Assembly: GCA_043228905.1 (NCBI GenBank)
Contig: JBHGNT010000001.1
Span: forward strand, 5,704,001 to 5,768,000
From: Azolla caroliniana
Lineage: Eukaryota > Plantae > Polypodiophyta
Length of the DNA: 64,000 nucleotides
Direction: 5' to 3'
This document shows, one piece after another, positions 17,061-64,000 of this stretch; position 1 is the stretch's first letter, and each line of letters starts with the position of its first letter. The notes under the pieces are model-generated. The model saw nothing but the letters and a program-made list of their open reading frames with translations. It searched no databases and was not told the origin of the DNA. The position numbers were made by a program, and so were the translations under genes.

Positions 17061-17078
17061 TGGTGAACCCGACATGAA
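17061..17078 (+). promoter_or_regulatory. Primer-binding site, tRNA-Trp (element B)
   Basis: TGGTGAACCCGACATGAA, complementary with one mismatch to the plant tRNA-Trp 3' end as recalled (...TTCACGTCGGGTTCACCA). Confidence 0.75.
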
Positions 17079-29645: not shown

Positions 29646-32600
29646 TGTTGGAGACAAAGGCCGTCAATGCGGAAGATCAGATAACATTCGATTTGTTGCG
29701 GAGTACCTGCGTATGACAGTTTCTGAGATCGTGCAGAGAGAGAGAGAGAGAGAGAGGAGGCACAAAAGACTTTCTATTCAATAGAATCAAAATAATACAA
29801 CCAACCTTACAAAGAGGTTACAAGGTCACTTTATATAGTGACCGACTTAGGGCAAATACCATTTATGCTAATTACACAAATGGCCCAAACTTGAGCTATA
29901 CAAAGGGATAGTGTGAATACGTCCATTATACACTTGTATTCGACACTCCCCCGTAATGGGCGTATACATGGGTTATCTAAGATTATAGGTATAAAGCTAG
30001 GTTCTCGGACATATCAGTTTTGTTTGAGTCGGCAGGGTCCGAAGGCAGAAGACCGGACTGGTCGGGTCGGAAGAGTTGAAGCCGATCATTAAGGAACTGA
30101 TGTCGGTTGTCCGAAGCCATCCTGCGCTGTGTCCGGCTCTAACCGGACTGGTTTGTCGTTACGCCCATCTGATGCCGAAGGGACCGAAAGCGGTCTACCG
30201 AAAGACACTTGGTCATTCCATCTGCGACATTGTCGGTTGTGGATATTTTCTCTAGACCGATTTTCCCTGAAATGACGCAGTCCCGAACGAAGTGATATCG
30301 AACGTCGATATGTTTGGAGGCGTTGTGGTGAACCGGATTTCTCGACAAGGCAACAACACCTTGACTGTCGCTATAGACAACTGGAGCCGAGTCATGGTCG
30401 ACTTGTCGAAACGTGTGCGCCAGCCGGCCGAGCCACAAAGCTTCTTTTGCAGCGTCGGACGCAGCTACATATTCTGCTTCGGTCGTTGAGGTTGCTGTGC
30501 ACTCCTGAAGTTTCGACTTCCATGAAATTGCTCCATTGCCGAATTTGAAGCAGTATCCGGTTGTTGATTTCCGACTGTCTATACAGCCGGCGAAGTCCGA
30601 GTCGGTGTAACCGACAACGCCCGAGGTCGAGTTCGGACCGAAAAGAATGCCGTGGTCTTTTGTGCCAGCCAGATATTTGAACACATGCTTGACTGCGTTC
30701 CAATGCGATCGGCCAGGATTGTGCATAAATCTGCTAACGACTCCTACGGCATGAGAGATATCAGGCCGTGTCGCGACCATCAGGTACATAAGGGAGCTGA
30801 CTGCCGGTGCATACGGTACCGACTTCATATCTTCCCCCTCCGGACCGGATGTCGGGCAGTCTCGCTGAGAGAGCCGAAGATTCATGGGGAGCGGGGTTGA
30901 AGCAGATTTGGCTGATTGCATGTTGAAGCGTTCCAAGACACGTCCGATATAGTCGGTCTGAGACAAAAAAAGACGTCGTTTATCGCGATGCCGACTAATC
31001 TTCATGCCAAGTATGTGTCGTGCCGGACCGAGGTCCTTCATGGCAAACTTCAACCGCAGTTGCCGAATGAGATCGGCAAGTTCGCCCGCGTGGCGACCAG
31101 AAATTAGCATGTCGTCCACGTAGATGATGAGGAAGATGGGTGATCCATCTTGAGCTGTGTTGGTAAAAAGACAATGGTCCTCATCGCTTTTTGAGAAGCC
31201 GATCGATTGGATGAAGTCGTCGAACTTCTTGTACCATTGTCGCGGTGCCTGTTTGAGGCCGTATAGACTCCTCCTGAGTCGGCAGACTAGATGTTCTTGG
31301 CCAGTTGCCACGAAGCCTTTTGGCTGCTCCATATAAATTTCCTCTTCAAGATCACCATGGAGGAAGGCTGTTTTGACATCTAGCTGAATCAGCTCCAAGT
31401 TGTCGGCTGCCACTACGCCGAGTAGAAAACGAAGGGTTGTCATTTTCACCACTGGTGAAAAAATCTCGTCGAAGTCGACGCCATATTCTTGTCGGAAGCC
31501 CTTCGCAACTAATCTGGCCTTGTACTTTGGGGTGGTCGAATCAGACGTCTCTTTTAGTCGATAAACCCACTTGCAAGGAAGAGCACGTCGATTCTTAGGT
31601 AATTCGACCAGATCCCAAGTCTTGTTTGCCCGAATGGAGGGCATTTCCGACTCCATCGCCAGATGCCAGGTGGCTGAATCGACAGATGTCGATGCTTCTT
31701 CGTAAGACGTCGGTTCGCCGGCGTCGGTGAAGAAAATTCCAGGAGAATACCTCTCCGGAGGTTGCGACAGTCTCTCGGATCGTCGAGGTATGATTGGACT
31801 GGTCGCATCGGGTATCGAGGTCGGATGGTCCGAAAGCGAATCATTCGGCTGTGCCGAGTCGGAGTTGTCCGAGTCGGTGGTGTAAGGTTCAGCTACCCGT
31901 GAAGCTGACCGTGTGTTAAGAGCGGGGCCTTCTTGAAGGGTCGGCACATCGGAAAATGTTACCCTTCGGACTTCGATCGGTTTTTCGACTGATGGATTCA
32001 TAGCCGACTCGTTGAACACAACGTCCGAACTTCGAACGATTTGTCTGCGTTCGGGGTCCCAGAGTCGGTATCCCATTTCGCCGTCGGATCCATATCCAAG
32101 GAAAATGCATTTCCTGGACCGAGGTGCAAGTTTTCGGCGATCATCTTTCGGAATAAGGGCGTACGCCTCGCATCCGAAGATCCTCAGCTTGTCGTAATTC
32201 GGCTTACTGCCGATCCATAGTTCCTGAGGAATTTGAAGTCCTAGAGGTCTACTTGGCGACATATTAATTATGTGTACTGCCGTGAGTAGAGCCTCTGCCC
32301 AGAAGCCATCCGACAGTCCGGAGTGTTGGAGCATGGAAACTATCCGTTCTTGGATTGTCCGATTCATGCGTTCTGCAATCCCGTTTTGCTCCGGACTGTG
32401 TGGTGCCGTAAATTCACGTCGGATGCCGCGTTGTCAGCAGAATTTGACGAATTCTTCTGATTTGAACTCTCCCCCATTGTCGGTCCGAAAGCATTTCAGT
32501 TTTCGGTCAGTTTGATTTTCTACCATCGCGAGCCAATCGGAGAAGATCGAGAAGACACGATCTTTGGTGCGAATTGGATAAGCCCACACCTTTCGAGTCG

Positions 32601-35167
32601 AATCGTCAATAAAACTGACGAAGTAAGAGGCACCTCCGAGTGACTGATGCGGCATTGGGCCACAGACGTCCGAGTGGACTAAATCGAGAGGTCTCGTTTC
32701 TCTTGGTGCTGATGTCGGGTGTGATGCAGCTGCTTGTTTGCCATACTGGCAATGTTCGCAGAATTGATGGTCCGAGAAGGAGAGTTTAGGGATGTATCCG
32801 GCTCTAGATAGGTGCGTAATGCCGGCCTTGCTGAGGTGTCCTAATCTTCTGTGCCATAGTGATGACACAGGAATATCCACCAAAAACAGGTTACCCTCTC
32901 TGAGCGTAACATGTAACGGATACAATGAGTGTATCTTGGGTCCTCTAGCAAGCAGGAGGTTCCCCCTGTGGAGTGTCCACCCTCCCGAAGAAAAACCGGC
33001 ACGAATGCCGTCTTCATTTAGTTGTCCGACTGAGATCAATGGCCTTGAGAGCTCGGGTACATGTCGGACATTGTGAAGTACAAGTGTAGAGCCACCTGCA
33101 AGGTTGAGCTCTACTGTGCCGATTCCAATGATGTCACAGTGTTGCGAGTTGCCGACTCGAACTGAGTCGGAGTGACGGATCGTATATTGCCGAAATTGGG
33201 ATCGATGAGGAGTCACGTGAAACGACGCGCCCGAATCTAAGAGCCATGTGCTCGATTCTTCAGTCGTGAGCAGAACTTCTGATCCGACTGGATTTTCGAT
33301 CGATAGTATATTCGGGTCGTTTGGTAGCACATCAGCTGAGAAGCTGACGTAATTGATCTCCTCATGCCGGCCACTCTTCTTGTCTGATTTCTGAGACTTG
33401 TCGTTCTTGTTCTTGAGTGCGCGGCAGTCGGCTTTGATGTGTCCGGGTTTCTTGCAATAGTTGCAGATTCGATTGTCCCGTGACTGGCTCCGTCTTCGTT
33501 GCTTGTTCGGCTGCCGTGAGGAATCTCTTCCTCGTATGTTCGATCGGTCTGTCGAACCTTGTACTACATAAGCGTCGTCTGTTGAGTCTTTGGCGAAAGA
33601 CTTTCTCCGAGCTGCTTCGGTCAGGATTGCGCTCGTGACTTCGGAGTATTTAACAGCCGTGATTGACGCGTTGCACACGGTTGTGACGAAAGTTTCCCAT
33701 GATGAGGGAAGGCTGCTCATGAGTATCATTGCTCTGAGTTCATCCTCGATTGCCGTCCCCTGAGATGAGATTTGGGAGCTTATGCTTTCGTACTCATTTA
33801 GATGTGCTTGAACCGAATCGGATTCTTTCATTCGCAAGTTGTAGAGGCGCCGAATAAGAAACATCTTCGTTGCAGCGACCTTCTTTTCGTAGGTGTCTGA
33901 CAGTGTTTTCCACAGTTCGAATGTTGTCGTACACGATTGCACCGTAAAGTATACCGATTCCGAAAGGTGCATCCGAATCGTGGCGCGGACGATTCTGTCC
34001 AGCTTCTGCCACTCAATTGGTTTGTATCCTTCTGGAGGTTCTTCATTTTCGATGGGATCGATTTGCCCCTTGACTATGAGATAGTCCTGCATTTGCTCCT
34101 TCCAGAAGTTGAAGTTCGATCCATCGAACTTTCGTAGACTCATTTCTGACGAGCCGGATGTTGATGCCATCAAATTTGGTTTCGGTTGACGAAGCTCGGT
34201 TCGGAGTTGACTACGAACCTTGTTGGAGTGCAGCCGGTTGGCTCACCCGATATCGTTCTAGTCGGATTTGAACCCGAGTCGGTGCGGCTTCGGATATATG
34301 TATTGTTGAACTTGCTCGAATTGACTCCGGTAACTTGAGGGACAGAACCGACTGGTCTTCCCGAATGTTGCCGAGTCGGAGTGAGCCCGGTTCGCTTCCG
34401 AATATGTATGCCAAATACCGATTATTGAAACCGATTGTCTGGACCGATTCTGCTTCGGGTGACTGCAGCGACGAGAGAGACGGATCCAACTGATCCTCCC
34501 GAATGTCGATCAGCCGGATGAAGCACGAATTTGGGTTGTTGTCTTGAGACCGATCTGCACCGAGTGGTTACAATGAGCGGCGAGCAGCGTTTGATGACCT
34601 CTTCGGATGCCGTTTAACCGAGTGGAGCACGATCGTGTCAATGTTGCACAAGGGGATTTCACCTCGAGCGGTTACGATCATAAGGAACAGAGTACAAACG
34701 GCTGGCTTACTCCAAGCGAAGATGATCTAACGCGATGAGATGCAAGCCTCGTTTTTCTTCTTCTTCTCTCTTCTTCGAATGACGCAAGAAACCGAATGCT
34801 GTGCAGGCTGAGACGACGGCCGACAGCGGGTTGAAGGACCGAATACTGTGCAGGCTCTGATACCAAATGTTGGAGACAAAGGCCGTCAATGCGGAAGATC
34901 AGATAACATTCGATTCGTTGCGGAGTACCTGCGTATGACAGTTTCTGAGATCGTGCACAGAGAGAGAGAGAGAGAGAGGAGGCACAAAAGACTTTCTATT
35001 CAATAGAATCAAAATAATACAACCAACCTTACAAAGAGGTTACAAGGTCACTTTATATAGTGACCGACTTAGGGCAAATACCATTTATGCTAATTACACA
35101 AATGGCCCAAACTTGAGCTATACAAAGGGATAGTGTGAATACGTCCATTATACACTTGTATTCGACA
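29646..35167 (-). mobile_element. Young full-length Ty1/copia element F (Tnt1/Tork-like, same family as D); LTRs 34868-35167 and 29646-29945
   Basis: 300-bp LTRs differing at about 2 positions; perfect TSD TAACG; PBS TGGTATCAGAGCC at 34865-34853; PPT GGGGGAG at 29952-29946. Confidence 0.96.
30139..34170 (-). CDS. Copia Gag-Pol polyprotein of element F (~1343 codons) with one in-frame TGA at 32436-32434
   Basis: ORFs 34173-32434 and 32367-30139 are in the same frame. CNYCKKPGHIKADC, LLDSGASFH, WHRRLGH, HSDVCGP..RTDNGGEF, YKARLVAKGF, YVDDML, YTDSDFAG..KHIDVRYH. Confidence 0.92.
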
Positions 35168-43854: not shown

Positions 43855-44579
43855 TGTCGCGTTGTTACGCGCGTGCGTGTAGAAGGGGCGGGACCACCGG
43901 GGTCTCGGACTAGGGAGTAGAGGAGAAAGAATAGGACATGATATGGAGGCTTAGCTCAAGAGGAGAAGAGGAAAGAATAAGAGCACGACATAGAAGGAGA
44001 GATCGGCGGAGGCAAGATGTTCAACAAGTTATATTAAAACGTAGTGAATGATTACAAAATGGTGGCCGCATAGGCCGCACCAAACGACTACTCGAAACCC
44101 TAACCGACGAAGATGAAGATGAAGATAAAGAAACCCTAATCCTAACCCTAACGCTCGACCTATGTGGTATACCTCGCACACTCAAAATAGGCAACCCCCA
44201 CAATGGTGCCTTCCCTCTCCTTTTATAGCACAAGGAGAGAAGACCGTTTACAAAAGTGAGACTAAAATATCCCCTTTTATTCAAAGGGGATATTTGCCTT
44301 GATTTGGGGGAGGGTGAGATTGATGGCCCCCTTAACTCCCACCTCCTCACAAACAACTAGGTACCCATGTACCTCATAGTACCTCTCTCTCTCTCTCGCG
44401 TGGATGTGCGCACAAGACCACATCACCTTTATACCTTAGGGGTCTTATGGGCATTTCTAGCACCATACACTTTACCCTTATTACTATTACAAATACATTA
44501 TGTACGTGTGCAACGTTGCACATCGCTCTTTGGCTCTCGTTGCTCGGGTTTCCGCTTGTGGACAAAAATCTTCACGACA
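43855..44579 (-). mobile_element. Solo LTR of the tRNA-Trp-primed gypsy family (element N), inserted in the RT of K
   Basis: Family termini TGTCGTGAAGA...AACGCGACA on the minus strand; perfect 4-bp TSD ACGG at 43851-43854 and 44580-44583. Confidence 0.9.
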
Positions 44580-46595: not shown

Positions 46596-49500
46596 TAATG
46601 ACTACGAGGGTTATTGACATGAGATCATGATATCGATTAATGTTGGCCCATGATATGTTTACATCACAACATGATGTTATGACTATTTGTCTGACCTTAT
46701 CCTATTTCTTTGCCAAAAATTATCATTCAATGGCTCATAATAACGACCCGGTGTCTTCCGCCCAAGCGGAAGGAACTCAAGGAAATCCTCCTGGGCCAAT
46801 CTCCATTGAGTCGTATTTCTTACAAATACAAAATTTCCTTAGTTCAACTGCTCATCAGATGTCCGAACTTCGGCAATCTCATAGTGCTCTCAAGGCACAT
46901 GTCATTAGTTTACAACTTGACACTAATAGACCCGATGAGAGTAAGGGTGAACCATCATTTGTCCAAAATCCTTTGAAGAGGCCGTTGAAATGGTTCTTCG
47001 CTATCAACGCACTTTGAAGAAGGACCATAACAAACCCAACGAAACGCCCAGAACTAAGCAGTCGCAATTCGCTGGGAAATGCAAGACACCCAACGAATTC
47101 ATGGATCGCGATTGTAAGCGACATCCTCCTTTTTGCGTATTCTACAAAAAGAAGGGTCATACAAAAGAGCAATGTTGAAAGCTCCAACGGAAAGAGCATG
47201 ATAACAAAACAAAAGCTGCAGACCATAAACGTCAGATTCCTAATGTCCTTCAGGTCTATACACATCATTTAAGTAATTGTCAATGTTCTTTCCCTCACTA
47301 TGTATTGGGACCCAATGATTTCCTACGTGCAAAGGGTATATCAATGGATCCCCCGTACAATTTTTGTTTGATTAGGGAAGCTCACACAACTTTGTGAATG
47401 ATCGTTTGGTTCAGATATGGGGAATCCAACCCATCGTAAGTGATCACACATATAAGGTGCACTTGGCTGATGGAAGAGTACAATACATCAACGGGGTTGA
47501 TGAATCTTTGTACCACTAATGTAATACTGGGTTATCCCTGGTTTTTTAGTGAAAACTCTTCTTTATCTATTGATTAGGTTCATCATTCAATTACTTTTGT
47601 ACTGAACGATTGTACTCATTTTATTCAATGTGATAAAAAACAATCTCTTTCGATTATTTCCTCTCCATCAATATCCGAGTTGTCTTGTTCTACTTTATTT
47701 TATTGTGTATTTGATCCGGACATTGACGTTTACAATATCGATAATGTCTAGGTTCAATTATCATATTTCGAACAACAACACCTTGATGAAATCTTAAATG
47801 ATTTTCGTGATGTTTTTCCGAGTGAACTACCACATGGGTTACCTCCTAAATGTAATATAGACCATCGTATAGATATTGTACATGGCGTTGCACCAATAAG
47901 TATACCTCCTTATCGCTTAAGTCGATCCAAAGAGGATAAGGTATCTAAGCAACTCAAGAACATTTACGAATGGGTTATATACGTCATAGTAAATCTCCAT
48001 GGGGTGCACTTGTTCTCTTGGTAAAAAAGAAAGAGGGCACATGGCATATGTGTATTAATTACCGACGCCTGAACAAAGTGACGATCAAGAATTCATATCC
48101 ATTGCCTCGTGCTGACGATCTAATTGACCGTCTCTAGGGAGCTCGGTATTTTACGAAACTTGATCTCCATACGGGCTACCATTAAATTCGTATAAGTGAG
48201 GACGATGTTCCTAAAACGGCATTTCGTACGTGTTATGGCCATTATGAGTTTTTGGTTATGCATTTGGTTTGACCAATGCTCCGGCCACATTTCAACAAGA
48301 AATGTTTGACATTTTCCAAGAACAACTTGGAAATTTTTTCGTTATTTTCTTGGATGATATTGTAGTTTATAGTCATACATTAGAAGAAGATGCTAAACAT
48401 GTCCGCTTTGTTTTACAAACATTGTGTGATAAACAATTCTACGCGAAGATCTCAAAATGTGAGTTCTTCAAGAAATCAATTACTTATCTTGGACATCTCA
48501 TAACCGAATGGGGAGTTGAAATTGATCCTTCTTGCATCGAGAAAATCAAACTTTGGCCCACTCTTCGAAATATTCGAGAAGTTCGATCATTCCTTGGTTT
48601 TGTCGGGTTTTTGCGAAAATCGCTTCGTAATTACTCCAAATTGACGACGTCGTTTACTGATCTTCTAAAAGATCAAACACGTAAGTCTACAAAACCTATT
48701 GTTTGGAATTCTACACTAAACCTCGCCTTTAAGGAACTCAAGGACTTGGTGTGTAAGGCTCCTTCGCTTCTTTTACCCGATCCTTCAAAACATTTTGAGG
48801 TTGAAACTGATGCAAGCGATTATGCTATAGGTGTTGTCTTATATCAAGATGGTAAACCAATAACATTTGAGAGTAAGAAACTTGATTATGCTCAATGTTG
48901 GTATACCGTTCAAGAAAAGGAATTATTTGCAGTTATACATGCGCTCAAAACATGACGCCATTATCTTTATGGAAATCGTTTCGTGGTAACTACGGTGTTG
49001 CGTTGTTATGTGCGTGCGTGTAGAAAGGGCGAGACCACGGGGGTCTTGGACTAGGGAGTGGAGGAGAAAGAATAGGACATGATATGGAGGCTTAGCTCAA
49101 GAGGAGAAGAGGAAAGAATAAGACCACGACATAGAAGGAGAGATCGACGGAGGCAAGATGTTCAACAAGTTATGTTAAAACAACGAATGGTTACAACAAT
49201 GATGGCTGCCCTGGCCGCACCCAAAAATGACTATCTCAAAAACCCTCAAGGAAAACCCCAGAAGAAAGACTAACCGAAACCCTAACCCTAAAACGAAATG
49301 GGAAGAAGGAGAACCCTAGACTAAGTGGTATACCTTACTCACACAAAATAGGCAACCCTTCATAAGTGACCCATCCCTTCCTTTTATAGCCCAAGGAGGG
49401 AGGGACCTTACAATGTGGGATAAAATTTCCCCTCTCTTTCTATACACCATATCCTAGTTTACATGTGCACATGTAGCACACCAACGACTTGGCCTTCCCA

Positions 49501-49875
49501 CCCCGGTTTCCGCCTATGGACGAAAATCTTCACGACATCCACCCCCACCAAACTGCACATCCACCGGTATGTGCCAAGAAAGGAAAAGGGTGAGAGATTT
49601 CTGCGATGGTGATCGACCGGGTCTTTCGCCTTACCGGCACCCAACCTTCTCGCCGGTCCCTTGCCAACGCCAATCCGTCTTGCCGGCTCCTTACCGGCCC
49701 CGACCCGCCGGCTCCATCCGATCCACCACGTCCAGCGTGTGTCCCCGAACCGGCGGCTCCATCCGATCCGCCATATCCGACGTTCACGCCTTCTTCTTCG
49801 ACCGGCCCTCCCGAACGCCATTGCCGATCCGGTCACTCTTACTTTGTCCGCCACGTAGGTCCTCCGATTAGGCCC

Positions 49876-52800
49876 TCAGTCACCCCGTTTGCTCGACGGA
49901 TTCCGCCCCTCGCGTACCACTTGTGTTCTATCTCCGACTCGATCCTCTCTTCGTCTCGAACACCTCGTGCCGATTCCCTCTGTTCCGCGCTCACCTTTCG
50001 TAGGCTCTTTCCGTGTGCCCTTGTTGTCTCCCGAACATGCGCTCATTCTTCGGTCCCTCGGTGACCTCATTACGCGCTCCTCGCTTCTCCCTCGCTCGCC
50101 GTGCTCTCTCGTCGTAGAGCATACCATCATCCCGACCACCATGTCAGTGTCCTTCGCGACTCCCGTTACCGCCTCATCCCGTCTCTCGTCCTCTTGGCCC
50201 GCTTGGCCTCGCATGCCTTCCGAGATGCCGCGCTTCCGTAGCCCGTTGCTCTCCACGCACCTCCTCCAGTTCTCAAGACATAGCCTTCCATGCTCGCCGA
50301 TCATCCTCATGCTTGTCGTTCGACCCTTACGCGGCCACATCGCACGTCTCGCACTCCGCTCCGCTCTGTGTACCCTTTCGAAAAGGTACGTTGCTTTCCC
50401 GACATCCGTGTCGGTGCTCTCGTCTTCGGTGTCCTCCACAACCTCCGATGTTGCCGCTTCGCCCCGAGGTACACCCTCTTGGTCCGCCTCGCATGTCCTC
50501 CAAATGCGCTCCGGATCTCTCCGGTCGCACTCCAGTTTCCGCCCTTTGCGTGCCGCTCCTTTGGTTTTATCGTCTCCGCATGTCGAACACCTCGGTGTGT
50601 CAACTCTTCCCGCTCCGCTCTTGCCTTCCGTAGGCTCTTCCCATGCGTCGATGTTGTCCCCCGAATATGCGCTCATTCTTTGGCCCTTAGGCGGCCCCAC
50701 TCCGCATTCCTTCCCTCTCCTTTGCCCGTCGTGCTCTCTCACCGTAGAGCGTACCGTCATCCCAACCTCCGTGTCGGTGTCCCTCGAGGCTCTCGTTATC
50801 GCCTCGCCTCGACTTGCACCCTCTTGGCTCGCTTGGCCTTGTATGCCCTCCGGGAAGCCGCCACGTTTTCTCTTCCCGGTGTGTACCCCGTTGTTCTCCG
50901 CGCATCCCCTCCATTTTCCCAGACACAATCCTTCGTTCACGCCGATCACGCCCGTCTCGTTCTGTCGATCTTGGCGTCTCGTCGCACCGCCCGTCGTCCC
51001 GCGCTTGCCTCTCGAAGGCTTTCTCCGACCTTCATCGTTGGTCACTCGTTGTGGATCTTCTGGGTGCATGCTTGCTTCTTGGCCCTTCGCCGGCCGTAGT
51101 ACACGCTCTGTTCTACGCCGTAATGCATGCTTCGTGTTACACGCTTCCCTCGTTGTAGTCCCGACCTCCGCGTCGGCCTCTTCGTATTTCGTTGCCGTAG
51201 CCCCTTTCGACTCCGGCCTTCCGTCTTGGCCGTGCTCATCCGCCTTCACGCACCGGGTACCCGTTCCGGTAGCCTCGTCCGTTCCGGTCTCCGACTCCTC
51301 GCCGCCTTCCGCCGTCTCTTTGGTCTTACGTCGATCCGCAACCGCCAAAGTCTCAAGAATAGGTGAGGAGGGTCCCTCTTGCTCTTGGCCTCCCACCGAG
51401 TCGTACTCCTTGTGCATGCTTGGCCTCCTTCTCGTGCTCACCAGCTCCCACCGGGTGTTGTGGCCCATTCGCCCGGATCGGTCTCGGCCGATCGAGTCCC
51501 GGTTTGGTCGGCTCCCTTCCGTAATCGTAACCGGCCGGTACATGTTTGTCCGAACAAATCCAGCCTTGCCGGCTCTTCTTCGGTTCGGGCCCGGTTGACC
51601 GGACCCCGCTCCAATCTTCTTCCGCGTCATCTTCCGGTCGTGTCGGATTATCGACCGGTTCATTTTCCGGTCGGTTCGGTTCCCGACTCTCTCCTCTTTG
51701 CCACTCCCGACCTCTCCGTCGGTCCTCTCGTATATGCCCGTTCCGGGCCTCGCATCCTCATCTTCGTACGTGTTCGCTCCGGGCCACGCCTCCTCACGGC
51801 CACCGCCCTTCTCTCCGGTCTTATGTTGGCATTCGAGCGCAACCGCCGTAATCTCCGGTCTCGGTGTCGAGAGGTCTTGCCTCCGTCCGCTATGACCTTC
51901 CTCGTCATCGTTTCGATCGTCCGCTTTGCCACCGCCACCTTCCGTCTCTCTGGTCTCACGTGGGCTCTCGGGGCCGACCGCCGAAGTCTCTAGAATAGGT
52001 GTTGGAAAAGTCCCGGTACCGTTACTCGTCGATGCCATGTTCGTAGCCACCTTCGTTTGGATGCCGTGGTCCGTGGCTATCTCTTTCTCGTTCTCCTTGC
52101 CGTTGTCTTGGTTGCCCGCCTTGCCGCCGCCACCGCCCGTCGCTCTAGGTCTCACGCCGGCACTCGGGCCGACCGCCGGAGCCTCTAGGACCGGTGTGGG
52201 TAAGGACCCAGCACCGCCGCTTGTCTCCTCCCCACTCGACGTTTCGGGCCGCCATGTCCCGAATCCGTAGTTACCGGCCTCCATGGCCGTCCCTTCACCG
52301 CAAGGCAAGAGGGTCGCTTGCTCCGCACCCTCTCCCATGTTGCCGTCTTCTACGTCTAGGGAGGCTTCTTCGTCCGCATCCTCTGATCGCCTCCGCCCCG
52401 ACTCCATAACAAGCCCTTCTTCGGCTCCGATTTTCGCCTTCACAAGCTCACATGCCTCTCGTATTAGTGCGTCTAGGTCGAGCTCCTCCGAACTGTTTTG
52501 CGTTGAGCTCTCTTTCGACAGTAGTGCGTACTCACTCGCCGCTCTCTCTTCTCTACCGCTTGTGGGCCACGTTGTTGCCGACCGCTCCCCATTGGGTTTC
52601 CGGCATACCCACTCCGGTTTCGAGTATCCGTACGCTTCCAATAGGGCTACCTCCAAGGATACCCACGACTCGTGAGCTTCTCGTAGCTCCTTGACCTCCT
52701 TGTGCACCGATGCGGCCGCCACTCGAGGAAAATACTCTAGCCGCATCTCCTCGTCCACGCCCCCTTTCGCCATCTCGGCCTTGTAGGCTCCCAAAAATTT

Positions 52801-52950
52801 TGGGACCTCATTCCCATTGAACCGGCCGACTCGATCGACCACCCTTTCGACAGCTTGTTGAGCCGCATCTCGCTTCGCCATCTTCCGTCCGGCTTCCATC
52901 ACAATTTTTGCCATCATCTCCTCGAAGTCGAAGTCTTCTTCCATCTCCAT
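49876..52950 (-). CDS. 1024-aa ORF of element E: Gag N-terminal domain (~110 aa) fused to a long G/E/R/T-rich internally repetitive region of unknown function
   Basis: ATG 15 nt after the PBS; VDRVGRFNGNEVPKFLGAYKAEM...ESWVSLEVALLEAYG aligns with Gag of C and H; no stop for 3075 nt. Confidence 0.65.
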   Translation of the reverse strand: MEMEEDFDFEEMMAKIVMEAGRKMAKRDAAQQAVERVVDRVGRFNGNEVPKFLGAYKAEMAKGGVDEEMRLEYFPRVAAASVHKEVKELREAHESWVSLEVALLEAYGYSKPEWVCRKPNGERSATTWPTSGREERAASEYALLSKESSTQNSSEELDLDALIREACELVKAKIGAEEGLVMESGRRRSEDADEEASLDVEDGNMGEGAEQATLLPCGEGTAMEAGNYGFGTWRPETSSGEETSGGAGSLPTPVLEAPAVGPSAGVRPRATGGGGGKAGNQDNGKENEKEIATDHGIQTKVATNMASTSNGTGTFPTPILETSAVGPESPRETRETEGGGGKADDRNDDEEGHSGRRQDLSTPRPEITAVALECQHKTGEKGGGREEAWPGANTYEDEDARPGTGIYERTDGEVGSGKEERVGNRTDRKMNRSIIRHDRKMTRKKIGAGSGQPGPNRRRAGKAGFVRTNMYRPVTITEGSRPNRDSIGRDRSGRMGHNTRWELVSTRRRPSMHKEYDSVGGQEQEGPSSPILETLAVADRRKTKETAEGGEESETGTDEATGTGTRCVKADEHGQDGRPESKGATATKYEEADAEVGTTTREACNTKHALRRRTERVLRPAKGQEASMHPEDPQRVTNDEGRRKPSRGKRGTTGGATRRQDRQNETGVIGVNEGLCLGKWRGCAENNGVHTGKRKRGGFPEGIQGQASQEGASRGEAITRASRDTDTEVGMTVRSTVREHDGQRRGKECGVGPPKGQRMSAYSGDNIDAWEEPTEGKSGAGRVDTPRCSTCGDDKTKGAARKGRKLECDRRDPERIWRTCEADQEGVPRGEAATSEVVEDTEDESTDTDVGKATYLFERVHRAERSARRAMWPRKGRTTSMRMIGEHGRLCLENWRRCVESNGLRKRGISEGMRGQAGQEDERRDEAVTGVAKDTDMVVGMMVCSTTREHGERGRSEERVMRSPRDRRMSACSGDNKGTRKEPTKGERGTEGIGTRCSRRREDRVGDRTQVVREGRNPSSKRGD

Positions 52951-52965
52951 GCTCCCTTGCCGCAC

Positions 52966-52983
52966 TTCACGTCGGGTTCACCA
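52966..52983 (-). promoter_or_regulatory. Primer-binding site, tRNA-Trp (element E)
   Basis: TGGTGAACCCGACGTGAA, an 18-nt complement of the recalled tRNA-Trp 3' end including CCA. Confidence 0.8.
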
Positions 52984-54793
52984 AATATGTCGCGTTGTTA
53001 CGCGCGTGCGTGTAGAAGGGGCGAGACCACGGGGGTCTTGGACTAGGGAGTGGAGGAGAAAGAATAGGACATGATATGGAGGCTTAGCTCAAGAGGAGAA
53101 GAGGAAAGAATAAGACCACGACATAGAAGGAGAGATCGGCGGAGGCAAGATGTTCAACAAGTTATGTTAAAACAACGAATGGTTACAACAATGATGGCCG
53201 CCCTGGCCGCACCCAAAAATGACTATCTCAAAAACCCTCAAGGAAAACCCCAGAAGAAAGACTAACCGAAACCCTAACCCTAAAACGAAATGGGAAGAAG
53301 GAGAACCCTAGACTAAGTGGTATACCTTACTCACACAAAATAGGCAACCCTTCATAAGTGACCCCTCCCTTCCTTTTATAGCCCAAGGAGGGAGGGACCT
53401 TACAATGTGGGATAAAATTTCCCCTCTCTTTCTATACACCATATCCTAGTTTACATGTGCACATGTAGCACACCACCAACTTGGCCTTCCCACCCCGGTT
53501 TCCGCCTATGGACGAAAATCTTCACGACAACGGACCACGAGTTCTTGAAATATTTCTATGACCAACAAGACCTGAAAGGTCCGAAGGCACGATGGGTTGA
53601 TCTCATCTAGGACTTTGATTTTTCCCTACGATATCGTAAAGGTTCCATGAACACTGTCGTAGATGCACTAAGTCGCATCCGTAAAGTTAACATGCTTAGC
53701 TTCACTGAAATAACATCAGATCTTTATTATCACCTTTGAGGAAAGTGTCCTGATGACAGTTATTCTGCAAAATACTGGGCAAGAGTTGAGTTTGGAAGAA
53801 CACCACCACATCCTCGAAGGAATCCTTCCACATTGCTAATGGTCTGCTCTACCGTAATAAGAAGGTTTGTGTTCCAAATTTTCCCAAGTTCAAAAAGAGA
53901 ATTCTTTTTGAATGCCATGATGCACCCTCAGTAGGGCACCCTGGAATATATCGTACACTCGTTCTAATCTCCACTCAATTCTATTGACCTAAGATGCATC
54001 CTGACATACATAGCTATGTGATTAAATGTCACCAATGTCAGGTTAACAAAGCCGAGCGACTTAAAGCTATAGGACTGGGAAAGTATATCCATGGATTTTA
54101 TTCTTAGCCTTCCTCGCACCCAAAAAGGCCATGATGTCATTTGGGTTGTGGTTGATAGACTAACTAAAATGGTAAGATTTATTGCTACTAAAACCACGAC
54201 AACAACTCCTGAATTGGCTTACCAATTCGTTGACGAGTTATTTCGTTTTTATGGGTTACCGATGGATATCGTGAGTGATCGAGATCCAAAATTTATTAGT
54301 GACTTCTGGATGCAAGTCTTTAAGAATTTAGAAACTACGTTGAGCATGAGCTCCACGAATCATCCTCAATCCCATGAATAGACAAAACGAGTTAATCAAA
54401 TTATTGAGGACATGCTTCGAGCATACGTTGGTGCAAAACCAACAAAATGAGAACTTCATCTCCCAATTTTGGAGTTTGCTTATAACATCTCTAAGCATAC
54501 GTCGATGAGATATAGTCCTTTTATATTGATGTATGGTTTTCAGCCACGAGCCCCGATTGATGTTAATATACATCATGATGAGTTGCGAAGTACGCAAAGC
54601 TTTCTTTAGGATATGCAAGATATGTTGCATATTACACGAGATAATATAAAAGCAACTCACGATAAAGCGCATTTTGACGCCGATCATAACATGCAACCTC
54701 GTGTATTCAACCCATGGACAGAAGGTATTTTTACGTGTACCTCACAATTCTAAGAGATTGTCTACGGGTAAGTGCGCTAAGTTAGCCCCACAA

Positions 54794-55442: not shown

Positions 55443-56201
55443 TGTTGCAGTGTATTCCACACACTACGTGAAAACCATAAAATAATATATCCGATTTTAG
55501 ATACATATAAATAAATAAATAATATATCAAAATATTTATCACGTGCATAAGGTAAGATTCAAACCCTATACCTCCATGTAGCCAAACCTCAACTTTACCA
55601 TTATGCTACCTTATCTTTAGTGTTCTACAAATAGATTTAATAACTATAAGTGCTTTATTTGTGCTACCTTTATTAAAAGGTAAATCATGCATTTTTAGAG
55701 TGCGTGAATATTTTATTGAAAAACGCAAGCAACTAAAAAGTGACTCATGCACATCTAGCGTGCATGAGCACTATATTTAGCAAATAAAAGCAAGGATTAG
55801 AAAAGCATCACATGCACATTTAGTGTGCATGAACATATTAGAAAAAACCATGTAGCTATGCTTAGTCTCTCCCATCACTATATAAGGATGGGGAGCACAT
55901 TGTAGTTTTTGTTGATTATTTTTCTATAATGATCAATCAATCTAAAATATTCGTGGGATTCACGAATTTGCTAAAATAATTCTCTCTTACTACCTAAATA
56001 TTGACTAAATATACCAAACTCGTGGGATTCACAAGATTCTTATCTTATAACTCTTTATACCTATTCTTTACTAGCCTTATTTGTATTTTTCTTCCTCCTA
56101 GTCCAAAACCTCGGCGGTTCCAACCCAACTCACGCAACGATCCGGAGCCGAAACGCACGACACAGTTGGTGAACCCGACGTGAGAACCGGGTGGCAAGGA
56201 G

Positions 56202-58244
56202 ATGGAAAATCAACCGGAGGCTAGCAACATGATGATGATGTTCGAGCGCATGCTACAAGAACAACGCACGATGTCGAAGATAGCGACATCAGTGGAGCGG
56301 CTCGTGCAACGAAACAGGCAATTCAACGGGAAAGACGTGTCGCGGTATCTTCGGGACTACAAGGCGGAGATGCTACGGTGCGGAATATTGGAAGGACTGC
56401 AAGTGACGTCCTTCTACCGGGTGGCGACCGACGGGCTTCAAGCAAGCATCCATAGGCTACGACAACAAAATCCGACATGGGAGGCGTTTGAAGAAGAGCT
56501 AAAGAGGACGTTCGCCATTGAGGATTCCTCCAAGGCGACGCGAAGGGGATTCGAAGATTGGGTGGAGACGCCGGACAAGGGATTGAAGGTCGTTGACGTG
56601 TTTTCGGCATTTGAAAGCCGGTTCGGGAGGTTGTCAGCGAGAGATCAAGCTATCCTCGTACCAGACAAGGTGATCATGTTCTTGCGAGCCGTGGACGTTC
56701 GGGACTGGAAAGATCTCGGAGTGCTCTTGGAAGACACGACCACGGAGAGTGGCCTCACCGAAACATGGGAAAGCGTGCGGGATATCGTCGTGCGATACAC
56801 GAAGAGGGGGCAATGGCTTGCCAACGAGGAAAAGAGGGTTTCGGAACCAATTCCGAAACCGAGAACCGGATTGGAAGACCATCAACCGAGGGCTCGGGAG
56901 ACTACAACCGAGAAGGGGATTGATGGACCTACGGTGGAGCAACTATTGAAGGAGATGGAGAATCTGAAGATCGCGATGGTGAAGAAGTCGGATGACCGCC
57001 CCACAAGCTCCAAGTATACGGACCGACGGTGCATATGGTGCGATAGCGCCGAACACGATCGGAGGGATTGCGACGAGCATAAGGAGGCACTACGGCGGGA
57101 TCTCATCTACTACGAGGGAAACTAGATTCATTCGATGGACTCTCGGAAGCCACTCCGACCGAACTTCCGGAAAGGCGGCATGAAGAAGGTGCTCGAGGAG
57201 GAATTGGCGGCAAGAAGCAACTATGCGACAACTACGGGAATATGTGTCGGGGAGTCATCGAGAGCAAAGACGTCTTTTTGGCCGGAAGTTCTAGAAAACA
57301 CCGAGAAAACCGACTCCAACGAGATCCGAAGCACCGCGGAAGGCGTCCGGGAAGCTACGGGATGGGAGTGCCCTATCGACAAGAATAGCGTATACGCCCT
57401 GTGTCAATTGCATAAGGTGTATGTGGACGAGAAACGACGACGCACGGAGGATGCGGGCGGGCCATCGAAGCTACCGGAAAGCTGGAACTCCGGAGGTAAG
57501 GGAAAAGAAAAGGCGACTCCGGCATTCAAGCTCGCCTCGGACATAGAACAACAAACCGACTTGAAAAGAGTGTTCGAGGAAAGGATCTTGGATAGCCGGG
57601 TAGATTTCTCGCTTCGGGAGCTACTCGGAATAGCAAAGAAGGAGTTCCACGATCTTCTCGTGGATCTCGTGAAGCGAAAAAGACAAAGTACGGAGGAAAA
57701 TGCTCCAAGGGTGAATGCGAACACCGTTTTAATGAACGACACTGAAGTGGAGGACGAAATTCCGAACTCCCACTATACAAGGCCACATTGGGCACACGCG
57801 ACTAAGGAGACTCCGGTCCGAATCGGCAACATCAAAGAACCCGTGCTAGCATTGATTGATCACGGATCGGAGATCAACTTGATGTCCAAGGAGTTCTACC
57901 GGAAGGGGAAGTGGCCTATTAACACCAATCATGGATGGAAGATTCGGGCGGCCACCAAAGCAACGAAAGATCTATTTGCGGCTTGTCCGGATGTGACGGT
58001 GAAGATCGGGGATGTCGAGATCGACCAAAATTTCTTCGTGCAAGATGAGGTTTCACATTCCGTCATCCTCGGCCAACCCTTTATCACGGCATCACGGATG
58101 GAGACGAAGGTGCTCGATAGCGGTGCGGCTTTTGCGCGAATTCAGAGCCAAAACGGTGGGAAATCCGTCCAATTCCTAACGGTGCCGGCAAATCACGAAA
58201 GGAACAAGAGGGAACTCTTGTCCCAAGTGAGAATGGATTTTTAA
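56202..58244 (+). pseudogene. gag-protease of element H (one in-frame TAG at 57123-57125)
   Basis: QFNGKDVSRYL, CIWCDSAEHDRRDC, ALIDHGSEINLM, VILGQPF; ends ATG GAT TTT TAA. Confidence 0.87.
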
Positions 58245-58298
58245 AGTGGACTGTTGCGGAGTGGGGAAGTGATAGTCCGAGAAGCCCTGATACCCCAC
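58235..58298 (+). promoter_or_regulatory. Predicted -1 programmed ribosomal frameshift signal (G_GAU_UUU, 6-nt spacer, H-type pseudoknot)
   Basis: The -1 frame is open from the site into RT; stems GGACTGTTGC/GTGATAGTCC and GTGGGG/CCCCAC; equivalent structure at 23900-23965. Confidence 0.75.
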
Positions 58299-59750
58299 AC
58301 AGGAAGAAAACTCTCGGAGCAAAACATGTACGAATCGGTCCGGATGGGGCATCTACGTACACGACCGTAACCGGAGGATTGAAGAAAGGATACCAACAAG
58401 TGGAGGATAAGTTGCGGTCGGCATCAATAATAAAAGAAGATGAGGAAATCATGGGGATAGTCGAAGAAGTGTTCTATGGGAGCACGCTACAACGACTTGA
58501 AGAGCTTGCGGAAGATAAAAGCCAAGGGATCCGGGTAGTCCCGGTGGAATCGGTCGAGATGTACGAGATCATTGCGAAAATGGAGCCGGATACGCTCCGC
58601 AAAGAAGAAGCAATGGTAAATACGAAATACAAGACCGTGGAGAAGAAGGTGAAACCGGCCGCGGGACCACTACCCGCCGATAGCGAACAAAAGAGGAAAG
58701 AAGTCTCGGGAGATCCGACACTTCGGAAGTCCGTGGATATCGGACATGCCTTCACGGATGAGACCCGGAAGAAACTTCGGATCGGTGGAGGTGGGTTCCT
58801 ATTACAAAAAGAAGAAGAACGGTTTCGCGAGATGTTGGAGCAACACGGCAAAGCGTTTGCATTTACATCAAGGGAGATAGGGTGCGTCGATTCGAGAATA
58901 GTGGAGCCGATGGTGATCTTCACGATTGACCATGTACCGTGGAACTTGAAGCCGATTCCGGTGCCACGAGCGCATATTCCGAAAGTCATTGACTTGCTCA
59001 AGGAGAAGGCGGCGATGGGGATTCTAGAGCCATCAACTACTCCGTACTCAAATCGATGGTTTACGGTTCCGAAGAAGAATGGGTCACTCCGATTTATCCA
59101 AGACTTGCAACCGGTGAATAAGGTCACGATCCGGAACTCGGGAGTTGGTCCGATAGTGGACGAATTTGTGGAAGCTTTTGCCGGTCGTGCGATATACTCC
59201 ATCGGAGACCTATACTCAGGGTATGACCAATTCCAACTAGCCGTGGAGAGCCGAGACATCACAACCATGCGAACACCGTTAGGATTAGTCTGAATGTGCA
59301 CACTACCACAAGGAGCGACAAACTCGGTTGCTCATATGATGAACGCGATGAACAAGGTGCTTCGAGACTGCATTCCGGAGATAACGATGCCGTTCCTCGA
59401 TGACATTCCGATGAAAGGATGCGCGGTAGAAGAAAAAGATGAGACTATGGATGATCGGGGATGCCGAAAGTTCGTGGTCGACCATACTCATGATTGCGAG
59501 AAAGTGTTGCGAAAGCTAGAAGATGTGCACCTAACACTTTCCGGGGAGAAATCGGCATTTGGGCAAGAAGAAATATTGGTGGTCGGACATCTATGTGGGC
59601 CCTACGGCCGAAGACTGTCACCAACAAAGATCGATGCGATTCAAGCTATGGAGGAAATATGCGAGTCAACATCCGAAGTCCGAAGGTTTCTCGGTGCATG
59701 TGCATTCTATCACATATGGATTCCGCACTATGCACATATAGCGGACCCAC
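58239..59750 (+). pseudogene. Reverse transcriptase region of element H
   Basis: RFIQDLQPVN, DLYSGYDQ, LPQGATNS, PFLDDIPMKG; one in-frame TGA at 59291-59293; cut by element I. Confidence 0.88.
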
Positions 59751-62700
59751 TGTCGTGCAGATTTTCGTCCATAGGCAGAAACCGGGGTGGAAGGGGCAAG
59801 TCGGTGGTGTGCAACATGTGCACATGTATACTAGGATATGGTGTATAGAGAGAGAAGGGGAAATTTTTGTCCCACATTGTAAGGTCCCTCCCTCCTTGGG
59901 CTATAAAAGGAAGGAAGGGGTCACTTATGAAGGGGTTGCCTATTTTGCGTATGAGAGGTATACCACTTAGCCTAGAGTTCTTACCGTTTTAGGGTTAGGG
60001 TTTCCTTATTCATCTTCGGTTAGGGTTTTCTCATAGTCGTTGGGTGCGGCCCATGTGGCCACCATTGTTGTAACCATTCGTTGTTTTAATATAACTTGTT
60101 GAACATCTTGCCTCCGCCGATCTCTCCTTCTATGTCGTGGTCTTATTCTTTCCTCTTCTCCTCTTGAGCTAAGCCTCCATATCATGTCCTATTCTTTCTC
60201 CTCCACTCCCTAGTCCGAGACCCCGGTGGTCCCGACCCTTCTACACGTACGCGCGTAACAACGCGACATATTTGGTGAACCCGACGTGAAGGGCGGCAAG
60301 GGAGCATGGAGATGGAAGAAGACTTGGACTTCGAGGAGATGATGGCAAAAATCGTGATGGAAGCCGGACGGAAAATGGCGAAGCGAGATGCGGCTCAACA
60401 AGCCATCGAAAGGGTGGTCGATCGAGTCGGCCGATTCAATGGGTACGATGTCCCGAGGTTCTTTTAAGCGTATGAGGCCGAGATGGCGAAAGGGGGCGTG
60501 GACGAGGAGATGCGGCTAGAGTATTTTCCTCGACTGGCGGCCGCATCGGTGCACAAGGAGGTCAAGGAGCTACGAGAAGCTCACGAGTCGTGGGTGTCCT
60601 TGGAGGTAGCCCTATTGGAAGCGTGCGGATACGCGAAATCGGAGTGGGTATGCCGGCGACCCGATGGGGAGTGGTCGGCAACAACGTGGCCCGCGAGCGG
60701 CAGAGAAGAGAGAGCGGCGAGTGAGTACGCACTACCGCCGGAAGAGAGCTCAACGCAAAACGGTTCGGAGGAGCTCGACCTAGAAGCGCTAATACGAGAG
60801 GCATGCGAGCTTGTGAAGGCGAAAATCAGAGCCGAAGAAGGGCTTACACACACCGGTCCTAGAGACTCTGGCATCCGGCCCGAGAGCCGGTGTGAGACCT
60901 AGAGTGACGGACGGTGGCGGCGGCAATGCGGGCAACCGAGACGACGGCATGGGAGAGATGGTGGCAAGCGTAATCGAGGTTTGCGGAATCGGAGATGGGG
61001 TAGCCGCGGACAACGACGACCGGACGGAAGCGGCTACTGACACAACAAGTGGCGGTGCCGGGTCCTTACCCACACCGGTCCTAGAGGCTCCGGCGGCCGG
61101 CCCGAGTGCCGGCATGAGACCTAGAGCGACGGGCGGTGGCGGCGGCAAGGCGGCCTACCATGGCGACGAAGAGAACGAGGAAAAGATAGCCACGGACCAC
61201 GGCGTCCGAACGAAGGTGGCTACGAACATGGCATCGGCGAGTAATGGTATCGGGACTTTTCCCACACCTATTCAAGAGACTTCGGCAGTCGGCCCCGAGA
61301 GCCCACGTGAGACCGGAGAGAAGGGCGGTGGCCGTGAGGAGGTGTGGCCCGGAGCGAACACGTACGAAGATGAGGATGCGAGGCCCGGAACGGGAATATA
61401 CGAGAGGACCGACGGAGAGGTCGGGAGCGGCAAAGAGGAGAGAGTCAGGAACCGACCCGACCGGAAGATGGACCGGTCGATAATCCGACATGACCGGAAG
61501 ACGACGCGGAAGAACATTGGAGCGGGGTCTGGTCAACCGGGCCCGAACCGAAGAAGAGCTGGCAAGGTCGGATTTGTTCGGACAAACATCTACCGGCCGG
61601 TTACGATTACGGAAGGGAGCCGACCTAACCGGAACTCGATCGTCCGAGACCGATCCGGGCGAAGGCAAAGTTGACACGGTTGGAGGTCGAGGCGAACGGG
61701 CCACAACACCCGGTGGGAGCCGGTGAGCGCGAGAAGGATGCTAACCGGGCACGGTGATTACGGCTTGGCAGAAGACCGAGAGCGAGAGGAGCCCTCCACA
61801 TCTATCCTTGAGACTTCGGCGGTTGCTGATCAACATAAGACCGGAGACACGACGGGTGGCGGCGAGGAGTCGGAGACCGGAACTGACGAGGCCACTAGAA
61901 CGGGTACCCGGTGCGTGAAGACGGATGAGCACGGCCAAGACGGCAAGCCGGAGTCGAAAGGGGCTATAGCAAGAAAGGACGAAGAGACCGACGCGGAGGT
62001 CGGGTCTACGACGGATGAGGTGCGTAATACGAAGTATGCACTACGGCGTAAAACGGAGCAGGCACTACGGCCAGCGAAGGGCCAAGAAGTAAGCATGCAC
62101 CCGGAAGAGCGGCAACGAGTGACCGACAACGATGGACCTGTCGAGCCTTTGAGAGACAAGCACGCGGCGAGAGATGAAGCCGTAAGGTGCCGAGATCGGC
62201 GGATGGGTGGCGAGAGTGAAGGATGGTGCGCGGAGAACAACGGGGTACACACCGGGAAGAGAAAACGCAGCGGCTTCCCGGAGGACATACAAGGCCAAGC
62301 GGGCCAAGAGGGCGCAAGCCGAGGCGAGGCGGTAATGAGAGCCTCGAGGGACACCGACACGGAGGTCGGGAGGACGGTACGCTCTACGGTGAGAGAGCAC
62401 GACGGGCAAAGGAGAGGCAAGGAACGCGGAATGGGGTCGCCTAAGGGCCAAAGAATGAGCGCATATTCGGGGGACAACATCGGCGCACGAGAAGAGCCCA
62501 TGGAAGGCAAGCGCGGAGCAGGAAGAGTCGACACGCCGAGGTGTTCGGCATGCGGAGACGATAAAACCAAAGGAGGAACATACGCGGCACGAAAAGGGCG
62601 GAATCCGGAGTACGATCGGAGAGTTCAGGAGCGCACCCGGAGGACATACGAGCCTTTGCGAGGAATGCGCGCGGCGAGAGATGGAGCGGTGAGGTGCCGG

Positions 62701-63610
62701 TATCGGCGGATGATCGACGAGCGTGAAAGGCTATGTCTTGAGAACCGGAGGAGGTGCGTGGAGAGCAACGGGCTACGCGCCGGGAAGAGGAAGCACGACT
62801 TCCCGGAAGGCATGCGAGGCCAAGCGGGCCAAGAGGACGAGAGTCAGGATGAAGCGGTAACGGGAGTCGCGAAGGACATTGACATGGTGGTCGGGATGAC
62901 GGTACGCTCTACGGCAAGAGAGCACGACGAGCAAGGGAGAAGCAAGGAGCGCGTAATGGGGTCACGTAAGGACCGAAGAACGAGCACGCATTTGATGGAC
63001 GACAACGACGCACGGAAAGTGCCTACGGAAGCCGAGTGCAGAACGAAGGGAGTCGGTACGAGGTGTTCGGGGCGAGGAGAAGGTCGAGCCGGAGGTGGAA
63101 CACACGCGATACGCGAGGAGCGGCACCCGACGAGCAATCGAAGTAATCGGGGGTCTAACCGGAGGACATGCGCGGTGAGCGAAGGAAGGGAGACAGGATC
63201 GGCAACGGTGTTCGGGATGGCCAGTCGAAGAAGAAGGTGCGTGCGCTGGACGTGGTGGATCGGATGGAGCTGGCGGGTCGGGGCCGGTAAGGAGCTGGCA
63301 AGACGGATCGGCTCCGGCAAGGGACCGGCAAGAAGGTTGGGTGCTGGTAAGGCGAAAGACCCGGTTGATCACCGTGGCCGAAATCTCTCACCCTTTTCCC
63401 TTCTTGGCACATACCGGTGGATGTGCAGTTTGGTGGGGGTGGATGTCGTGAAGATTTTCGTCCATAGGCGGAAACCGGGGTGGAAGGGGCAAGTCGGTGG
63501 TGTGCAACATGTGCACATGTATACTAGGATATGGTGTATAGAGAGAGAAGGGGAAATTTTTGTCCCAGTTTGTAAGGTCCCTCCCTCCTTGGGCTATAAA
63601 AGGAAGGGGA
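59751..63610 (+). mobile_element. Non-autonomous element I (sister of E): 5' LTR 59751-60268, PBS 60273-60290, disrupted Gag-N/repeat ORF from 60306, 3' LTR from 63444 truncated at ~63610
   Basis: LTR and interior colinear with E; stop at ~60465 and frameshifts; a deletion joins the partial 3' LTR to the pre-integrase region of H. Confidence 0.88.
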
Positions 63611-64000
63611 AGAAGTTTCCGAAGACTACTTTGCGTCGGAGCACATATGCCGAGTGAACGTAATCCGAGAATTCCGGGAAGAAGAATACGAGGGAGAAAG
63701 CTTGATGATCGGAAAGATGTTACAAGAGGCCAAGGACTCAACAAACGATAAAGGAAGAAGAGCTGAGATCCGAAGGAAGAAGAGGCAAGTCCAAAAGTTC
63801 TTCTTGGAAAACGGATTAATATGGAGGGCGCCGAAAAGACCGGATGGTATACCACTTCGAGTAGTCGGGACAAAATAGCAACGAAACTGGATAATGTCTG
63901 AGTTTCACGAATCCAATTGGGCTGGACACCGAGGAACATGGGCAACATTTGTGAAGATCAAGCAAAAATATTGGTGGAAGAAAATGTACAAAGATGTCGC

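Follow-up and report, generated by a model that had tools for sequence, protein, structure and literature searches.

A 64,000-nucleotide (nt) stretch of Azolla caroliniana DNA (the window; contig JBHGNT010000001.1, positions 5,704,001 to 5,768,000) contains element E, a young, recently inserted, pol-less copy of an abundant plant long terminal repeat (LTR) family. E appears to be a copy of a satellite of Phygy-type Ty3/gypsy retrotransposons, with a single long open reading frame (ORF) that seems to be selected for its openness and, over most of its length, hardly for its content. Our preferred reading, to which we give about an even chance, is that the satellite RNA would be translated from end to end and that a capsid lobe at the start of the product would dock that same RNA, in cis, into the particles of helper elements. 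The parts of E are the following, in window positions:

48996-53529, - strand: element E, pol-less LTR element of 4534 nt
52988-53529, - strand: 5' LTR of 542 nt, with TG...CA ends and TATAAA at LTR position 150
52966-52983, - strand: primer-binding site (PBS), 4 nt behind the 5' LTR
49876-52950, - strand: ORF of 1024 amino acids (aa), ATG at 52950, closed by a stop private to E
52612-52950, - strand: N-terminal helix and capsid N-lobe (aa 1-113), C-lobe deleted in frame, placed by alignment and by the fold of the L019 model
49879-52600, - strand: charged, low-complexity linker of about 900 aa built of in-frame duplications, near-neutral in sequence, frame kept
51286-52197, - strand: four TP.LE..AV units, starting at 52197, 52002, 51867 and 51366 (aa 252, 317, 362 and 529)
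49936-50925, - strand: two CL..WR units of about 115 aa each, starting at 50925 and 50280 (aa 676 and 891)
49538-49875, - strand: basic open frame past the private stop, with tryptophan (Trp) motif units at 49753-49779 and 49708-49734
49555-49574, - strand: hairpin ahead of the polypurine tract, common to satellites and helpers, with two compensatory pairs
49538-49549, - strand: G-rich, helper-type polypurine tract (PPT) abutting the 3' LTR
48996-49537, - strand: 3' LTR, 533/542 identical to the 5' LTR
48992-48995, + strand: left copy of the target-site duplication (TSD), ACGG, 4 nt, NCGN type
53530-53533, + strand: right copy of the TSD, ACGG

The original prediction, made from the letters alone, described E as intact, free of enzymatic motifs and of a zinc knuckle, and tied by its termini to a helper element, C, in the same window; all of this holds. 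The 542-nt LTRs differ at nine positions and are flanked by ACGG on both sides, the 1033-codon frame of E matched no Pfam family at an E-value ≤0.1, and no CCHC knuckle was found in E or in any of 27 related ORFs. Rfam gave no match over E at an E-value ≤0.5. The LTR ends, the PBS (which we take to be of tRNA-Trp type) and the box ahead of the 3' LTR are common to E and C; a scan of prokaryote genomes with the tRNA end gave chance matches only. E interrupts an older Ty3 element in its RNase H frame, which reads from ...FVVT straight into TDHEF... across the insertion once E is set aside.

The predicted 1024-aa ORF is open from its ATG, and its end proved peculiar to this copy. Its 1024 codons are free of stops, the two remaining sense frames contain 35 and 34, and shuffles of the ORF hold 40.7 expected stops against none seen, counts that rule out a compositional artefact as its cause. 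At the terminal stop (49876-49878), 92-100% of the aligned depth in four public runs carries another letter, and with this stop set aside the frame runs open as far as the 3' LTR and on into it, which makes the family ORF longer than 1024 aa. E would be expected to have gained about one stop of this kind after insertion (arithmetic from LTR divergence and a nonsense share of ~3.3%), and thirty E-private sites, among 40 listed of 495 rows, fall on codon positions 10/7/13, as for neutral changes. E is now likely a decaying copy, whose product would be without the Trp-rich end. An antisense frame of 579 open codons also lies over the linker (49859-51598, + strand); it has no Pfam match, shows 8 stops across the whole interior and is probably a by-product of strand composition.

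A pattern built from the LTR end and PBS retrieved 53 public loci, comprising gag-pol helpers and pol-less elements with one long ORF. Among satellite-type loci with an interior of at least 1.4 kb, 7/10 are intact and 3/10 broken (two of the latter at coverage near 2); in the seven intact loci the ORF spans 89-99% of the interior and stops 11-176 nt ahead of the 3' LTR. Protein searches returned relatives of 373-1419 aa, with 339 representatives at an E-value ≤0.001. Contigs matching E numbered 9015-12236 in each of three runs and 2224 in a leaf metagenome, contig depth on E not being a copy number. The E family is abundant and mobile, and the mobilisable satellite lineage that had been proposed is borne out by these counts and by the shared LTR end and PBS of the 53 loci. 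A search of metagenomes for related loci found no relative of E, and the PBS pattern had zero matches among viral contigs. None of the public runs with E-family contigs is on record as RNA; two runs guessed to be RNA gave 29 contigs at low depth (X18) and none (X19), which is evidence neither way. One locus, L029 (505-1791), has E-type termini, the Trp motif and a 428-aa ORF without stops from which the capsid is absent; its N-terminus carries two ~75-aa helical repeats and acidic FELGDGP repeats.

Selection differs sharply between the two parts of the ORF. The pooled ratio of non-synonymous to synonymous substitution rates (dN/dS) is 0.35 in the Gag part (four disjoint pairs, 382 codons, P = 2.7e-6) and 0.89 in the linker (four disjoint pairs, 1671 codons, P = 0.26). 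Pairwise dN/dS is significantly below 1 in 7/10 Gag rows and in 1/14 post-Gag rows; the remaining Gag rows comprise two non-significant ones, both from E's subfamily, and one without changes. The capsid part thus appears to be under purifying selection at the protein level. Under neutral decay at the fitted divergence, each lineage would be expected to gather ~4-14 stops, only 0-5 of 300 simulations remaining stop-free, and indel events have lengths that are multiples of three in 75/106 cases in the ORFs versus 7/50 in the LTRs (the pairs overlap and are not independent). Because the expected stops are absent and the indels come in multiples of three, we infer selection on the frame and little on the linker sequence, stops and frameshifts being purged. 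The dN/dS and frame comparison that had been proposed thus gave a divided answer, with a constrained Gag part and a near-neutral downstream part in which indels nevertheless keep the frame. The idea that the interior acts as RNA only is, in its strict form, not supported, given the purging of stops and frameshifts. The four TP.LE..AV and two CL..WR units were located as described, and a dN/dS of 0.89 speaks against them as functional domains. The linker is predicted to be disordered (P0174, aa 292-622, predicted local distance difference test (pLDDT) <50).

A kept frame over drifting sequence could also mean that the open frame serves the RNA. Decay of transcripts with long 3' untranslated regions (UTRs) is known in plants, and translation would shield the transcript from such decay or from silencing, the protein being a by-product and packaging relying on RNA signals. 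The linker dN/dS of 0.89, the placement of the stop 11-176 nt before the 3' LTR in 7/7 complete loci and the capsid-less L029 all suit this alternative, as do a possible RNA fold in the Trp region and the covarying, conserved hairpin that satellites have in common with helpers. This pre-PPT hairpin is paired in 98.6% of cells across 18 distinct sequences, with two compensatory pairs, the structure having been derived from the same 18 sequences with relatedness uncontrolled. Its use as a kissing loop was considered and dropped, as the loop palindrome varies in several loci. RNA protection does not explain the capsid dN/dS of 0.35, deletions that follow lobe borders, or stops that lie just after the Trp motif and, in 24/27 ORFs, not before it; a short interior like that of terminal-repeat retrotransposons in miniature would solve the same problem, and translation can itself trigger silencing of plant retrotransposon RNA (PMC8892269). 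We regard this explanation as rather unlikely, and it and the docking reading can both hold.

The constrained N-terminal part appears to be a retroelement capsid. Structure prediction had been suggested for the two parts and was run on relatives: the model of aa 1-270 of L019, a relative with both lobes, (pLDDT 86) has the fold of two-lobed capsids, and the P0174 linker has the low values given above. In VIA-align, the L019 model matched dArc1 at Z 9.9 (root-mean-square deviation (rmsd) 8.3, 158 aligned), the Arc N-lobe at Z 8.9 (rmsd 1.9, 69 aligned), copia at Z 8.5, Drt2 (PDB 9rxy) at Z 7.3 (rmsd 4.9, 81 aligned) and the Ty3 N-terminal domain at Z 6.5 (rmsd 2.4, 65 aligned); ranks 1-19 are all retroelement capsids, although for a helical model such Z values are only moderate. 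In Atlas the indication is Retrotrans_gag (0.91), and the satellite sequences can be aligned with helper Gag. Foldseek had no match at an E-value ≤0.001, though capsids held the top rank, and in Pfam 6/7 satellite relatives had no match beyond weak ones below the cut-off. The ~110 aa of Gag attributed to E appear from alignment to be exactly the capsid N-lobe (aa 1-113). Only the N-lobe is kept in E, I (a sister satellite in the window), P0186 and P0187, and only the C-lobe in P0002, P0004, L011 and L046; the C-lobe loss in P0186 and P0187 is separate from that in E and I. Capsid deletions follow lobe borders.

Derivation of this lobe from helper C, by contrast, did not stand. The E lobe is identical to eight helper rows at 27-37 of 96 positions and falls in a satellite-only clade, so C is probably not the source of E's Gag. 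Among other satellites sharing the TP units and the Trp end, three N-lobes (P0182, P0186 and P0187) group with helper H, whose own N-lobe is their closest relative (Shimodaira-Hasegawa (SH) support 99), and three further ones are placed beside an L028-type helper (SH 90). A single clade for all satellite N-lobes was rejected (approximately unbiased test, P = 2e-47) in a quick tree of 28 rows, from which B, seven near-duplicate rows and P0194 were left out and to which further helper proteins were added. P0187 and H are 63% identical over the capsid part, an identity that marks the lobe as captured long ago and not joined in assembly. L008 and L011 have LTR stretches that are 79-84% identical to helper L034. 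Some satellites thus seem to carry capsid lobes from other helper lineages. Such capsid swaps need both RNAs in one particle, as is established for retroviruses and LTR elements. We note that the original prediction had missed this swapping, as well as the Trp-rich C-terminal motif past E's stop.

That prediction had also proposed that the satellite protein might co-assemble with helper capsids, redirect them or poison them. A predicted complex of the E N-lobe with a C-family capsid points weakly towards co-assembly (score 0.45 versus 0.02 for the best control; at least 77% of contacts recur between runs; partner pLDDT 82 or more). The mark applied to such scores was passed by 51/78 solved and 2/108 mismatched pairs, and at scores ≤0.60 by only 5 solved pairs and all 4 passing mismatches, so passes in the 0.45 range are more often wrong than right unless the pairing is likely beforehand. 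A capsid piece that meets helper Gag could instead act in trans, as a poison or size-changer of the kind of Ty1 p22 or of a defective interfering particle, cutting helper packaging in favour of satellite RNA. Single lobes can restrict, as do Ty1 p22 and Drt2, a disordered appendage of 400-1300 aa would disturb a capsid lattice, and satellites track several helper capsids. We nevertheless find such poisoning improbable: satellites cannot do without helper particles, in being abundant and mobile they differ from a domesticated restriction gene, a poison acting in trans brings no advantage in cis, and either lobe, or none, may be retained.

The other end of the ORF is marked by the motif R-I-W-W-I-G-W-x-x-W-F-G-W-K-E-W, which lies within the last 150 aa of 24/27 related ORFs and occurs also beyond E's stop and in I. 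The ends that carry it are net basic in 23/24 cases, and six ORFs stop 1, 5, 10, 10, 10 and 12 residues past the first Trp unit. In five helper loci the motif was not found, its one occurrence there being in a satellite end attached upstream of the helper in L041. Pairing of the Trp-region RNA with the 5' end gave z scores from -2.1 to +2.0 and no consistent signal (the L052 row covering 12 nt). A GW/WG Argonaute hook consists of reiterated GW/WG in a disordered, small-polar context, and the Trp-rich end could be the real function of the protein, as such a hook or as a membrane anchor by which the RNA would be protected or positioned, the capsid lobe being one of several exchangeable N-termini. 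The presence of the motif in 24/27 ORFs, capsid-less L029 included, the GW dipeptides in 22/24 ends and the spacing of Trp at about every third position would fit. However, each end holds only 0-4 GW/WG, two ORFs hold none, the basic and aromatic flanks are unlike those of typical hooks, a helix is predicted at pLDDT ~40-45 only, and Atlas gave no usable feature match for the Trp end, its structure rows lying under the bar. We consider this last alternative very unlikely.

Under the docking reading, the anatomy suggests that helper reverse transcriptase and integrase would act on the shared termini, copying and inserting the satellite. Ty1 and Ty3 draw on one RNA pool for translation and for packaging, and Gag binds RNA that is being translated (PMC4974528). 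The satellite RNA would very probably be translated to its end; the capsid lobe, first out of the ribosome, would join helper Gag during translation of the linker, which would act as a tether to its own mRNA, important in its length and frame and not in its sequence. The basic Trp-rich end may take over RNA binding from the zinc knuckle that has been lost, and the 3' UTR left by full-length translation would be short, a possible benefit. Satellite and helper RNAs would share particles, where template switching could swap capsid lobes and LTRs. The most specific version, in which a lobe held by the nascent chain docks the RNA, the Trp module replaces nucleocapsid and a lobe swap changes the helper, we put forward tentatively, as a possibility more likely wrong than right. 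If true, LTR elements would possess a one-gene device for packaging in cis together with a switch of helper range, and a natural ORF of kilobase length would be selected for openness and not for content.

Several observations weigh against the docking reading. Mini-Ty1 elements move without coding capacity (PMC4974528), so a protein is in principle unneeded, and L029 shows that some lineages can do without a capsid lobe; this locus, whose end is moreover acidic (net -28), is the main fact outside the reach of the docking reading. Constraint is weaker in E's own subfamily (dN/dS 0.33, 0.60 and 0.64, two of them non-significant). Three of 27 ORFs (P0005, P0176 and P0185) are without the Trp end, for which dN/dS is 0.97 over 80 codons, with an interval of 0.4-1.5 that is too wide to decide, and stop avoidance alone would partly shield Trp codons. 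The Trp-region RNA self-folds better than shuffles in 6/9 sequences, so the region may be an RNA element, and the score of the predicted complex may reflect likeness to solved capsids. Public contigs are majority paths through short reads, and protein searches favour intact ORFs.

Among described systems, the nearest is TR-GAG (Chaparro et al. 2015, PMC4350172), which has LTRs, PBS, PPT, TSD and one Gag ORF without protease, reverse transcriptase, RNase H or integrase, occurs in many copies and has a helper that is unknown or different; TR-GAG1 encodes, in less than 4 kb, a 433-aa Gag that has a zinc knuckle and lacks internal duplications. E is alike in its LTR pair, PBS, PPT and TSD (4 nt, not 5), in a Gag-capsid-like single ORF without the four enzymes, although with one lobe only, and in having at least two copies (E, I, B, the solo LTR and thousands of public contigs). 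It is longer (4534 nt versus <4 kb), within the 1-6 kb of that paper's hidden Markov model search, and its family is unlike TR-GAG1 in having lost the knuckle and often one lobe and in carrying a neutral linker of 400-1300 aa and a Trp-rich end. Phygy (Neumann et al. 2019, PMC6317226) comprises compact, non-chromovirus Ty3/gypsy elements with a 4-nt NCGN TSD and a PBS matching tRNA-Trp in 81%, described from autonomous Physcomitrella elements without extra ORFs; the term 'non-autonomous' is absent from the main text of that paper. Here, the NCGN duplications (E ACGG, solo LTR ACGG, C CCGT/CTGT) and the lack of a detected chromodomain in C are Phygy-like, and the proposed placement rests on these two features together with the presumed tRNA-Trp type of the PBS.

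A 2026 survey of sugar beet (PMC13570524) reports reshuffled LTRs and interiors, template-switch chimeras and 29 families keeping GAG/PROT. These families are alike in their modular reshuffling, their coding parts are treated as remnants, and in the available text no full-interior ORF kept by selection and no new C-terminal motif is seen. Ty1 p22/p18 and Drt2 also bring a single capsid lobe to helper Gag; they are C-lobe blockers of transposition made from an internal transcript or a fixed gene, whereas E keeps the N-lobe, has its own LTRs and TSD and is itself mobile. In satellite viruses of the hepatitis delta type, one adaptor protein links the satellite's own RNA to the helper's coat. E would work in the same way, with no homology claimed and with an adaptor that comes from the helper's own capsid. 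The literature covered (subscription papers, supplements, figures, Repbase and REXdb aside; an entry under a plain name is possible) held no description of this architecture, and E is best viewed as a TR-GAG-like element with a seemingly new arrangement of capsid piece, drifting spacer and Trp-rich end.

How non-autonomous LTR elements enter helper particles, and what the Gag of TR-GAG is for, are both left open in the available text of PMC13570524 and PMC4350172. The E family offers a testable answer together with natural controls, namely versions with N-lobe, C-lobe, both lobes or no lobe, capsids swapped in from helpers that are identified, and stops that show how far the protein must reach. 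A dN/dS of ~0.9 with the frame strictly kept would lead gene finders to call a host gene and selection scans to call junk. Being abundant in this plant group, the family shapes these genomes.

Five further members of the satellite and helper families lie in the window:

16320-19589, + strand: older satellite B, with 5' LTR, PBS, both capsid lobes and TP units, interrupted at 19590
20415-28134, + strand: helper-type element C, gag-pol, broken, LTRs 634/655 identical
43855-44579, - strand: E-family solo LTR with an ACGG/ACGG target duplication
56167-59750, + strand: helper-type element H, with a PBS as in E, gag, protease and reverse transcriptase, broken
59751-63608, + strand: sister satellite I, with the plan of E, inside pol of helper H

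I and B had both been said to share the plan of E, which is right for I and in part for B. The frameshifting in I had been taken to lean towards a frame-neutral interior; its breaks number only three (two stops and one frameshift) and are in line with decay after insertion. The 3' LTR of I is cut after 164 nt (LTR remnants 160/164 identical) and runs into integrase-region pol sequence (63609-64000), so a deletion has taken away the end of this LTR along with some of the host pol. B shares termini with E, has a longer Gag as well as the TP units, and is heavily decayed; neither CL..WR units nor a Trp motif or 3' LTR could be located in it. C, with a CCGT/CTGT target duplication, is one among several possible helpers and itself broken; its integrase frame shows rve and a weak SH3 only, with no chromodomain detected. 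A C-family solo LTR lies inverted within C's own 5' LTR (20745-21393, CAGT/CCGT duplication).

Among the public helpers, L003, L028 and L034 encode Gag and protease in one frame of 709-743 aa with the start of pol in a shifted, overlapping frame, which locates the frameshift after the protease. In L041 (1-2308), an L046-type satellite 3' end is joined via one LTR to an L028-type helper gag, so that satellite and helper share a near-identical LTR or lie in tandem. Elsewhere in the window, a copia element (29646-35167) is young, with LTRs 298/300 identical and a 5-nt duplication, and its polyprotein is open except for one stop between 32433 and 32434. Two MITE-like (miniature inverted-repeat transposable element) copies of 330 nt (7170-7499 and 14181-14509) are 97% identical and self-palindromic, and between them sits a two-exon host gene (10013-12300, - strand) with an RNA recognition motif and a Gly-rich tail, presumably a glycine-rich RNA-binding protein.

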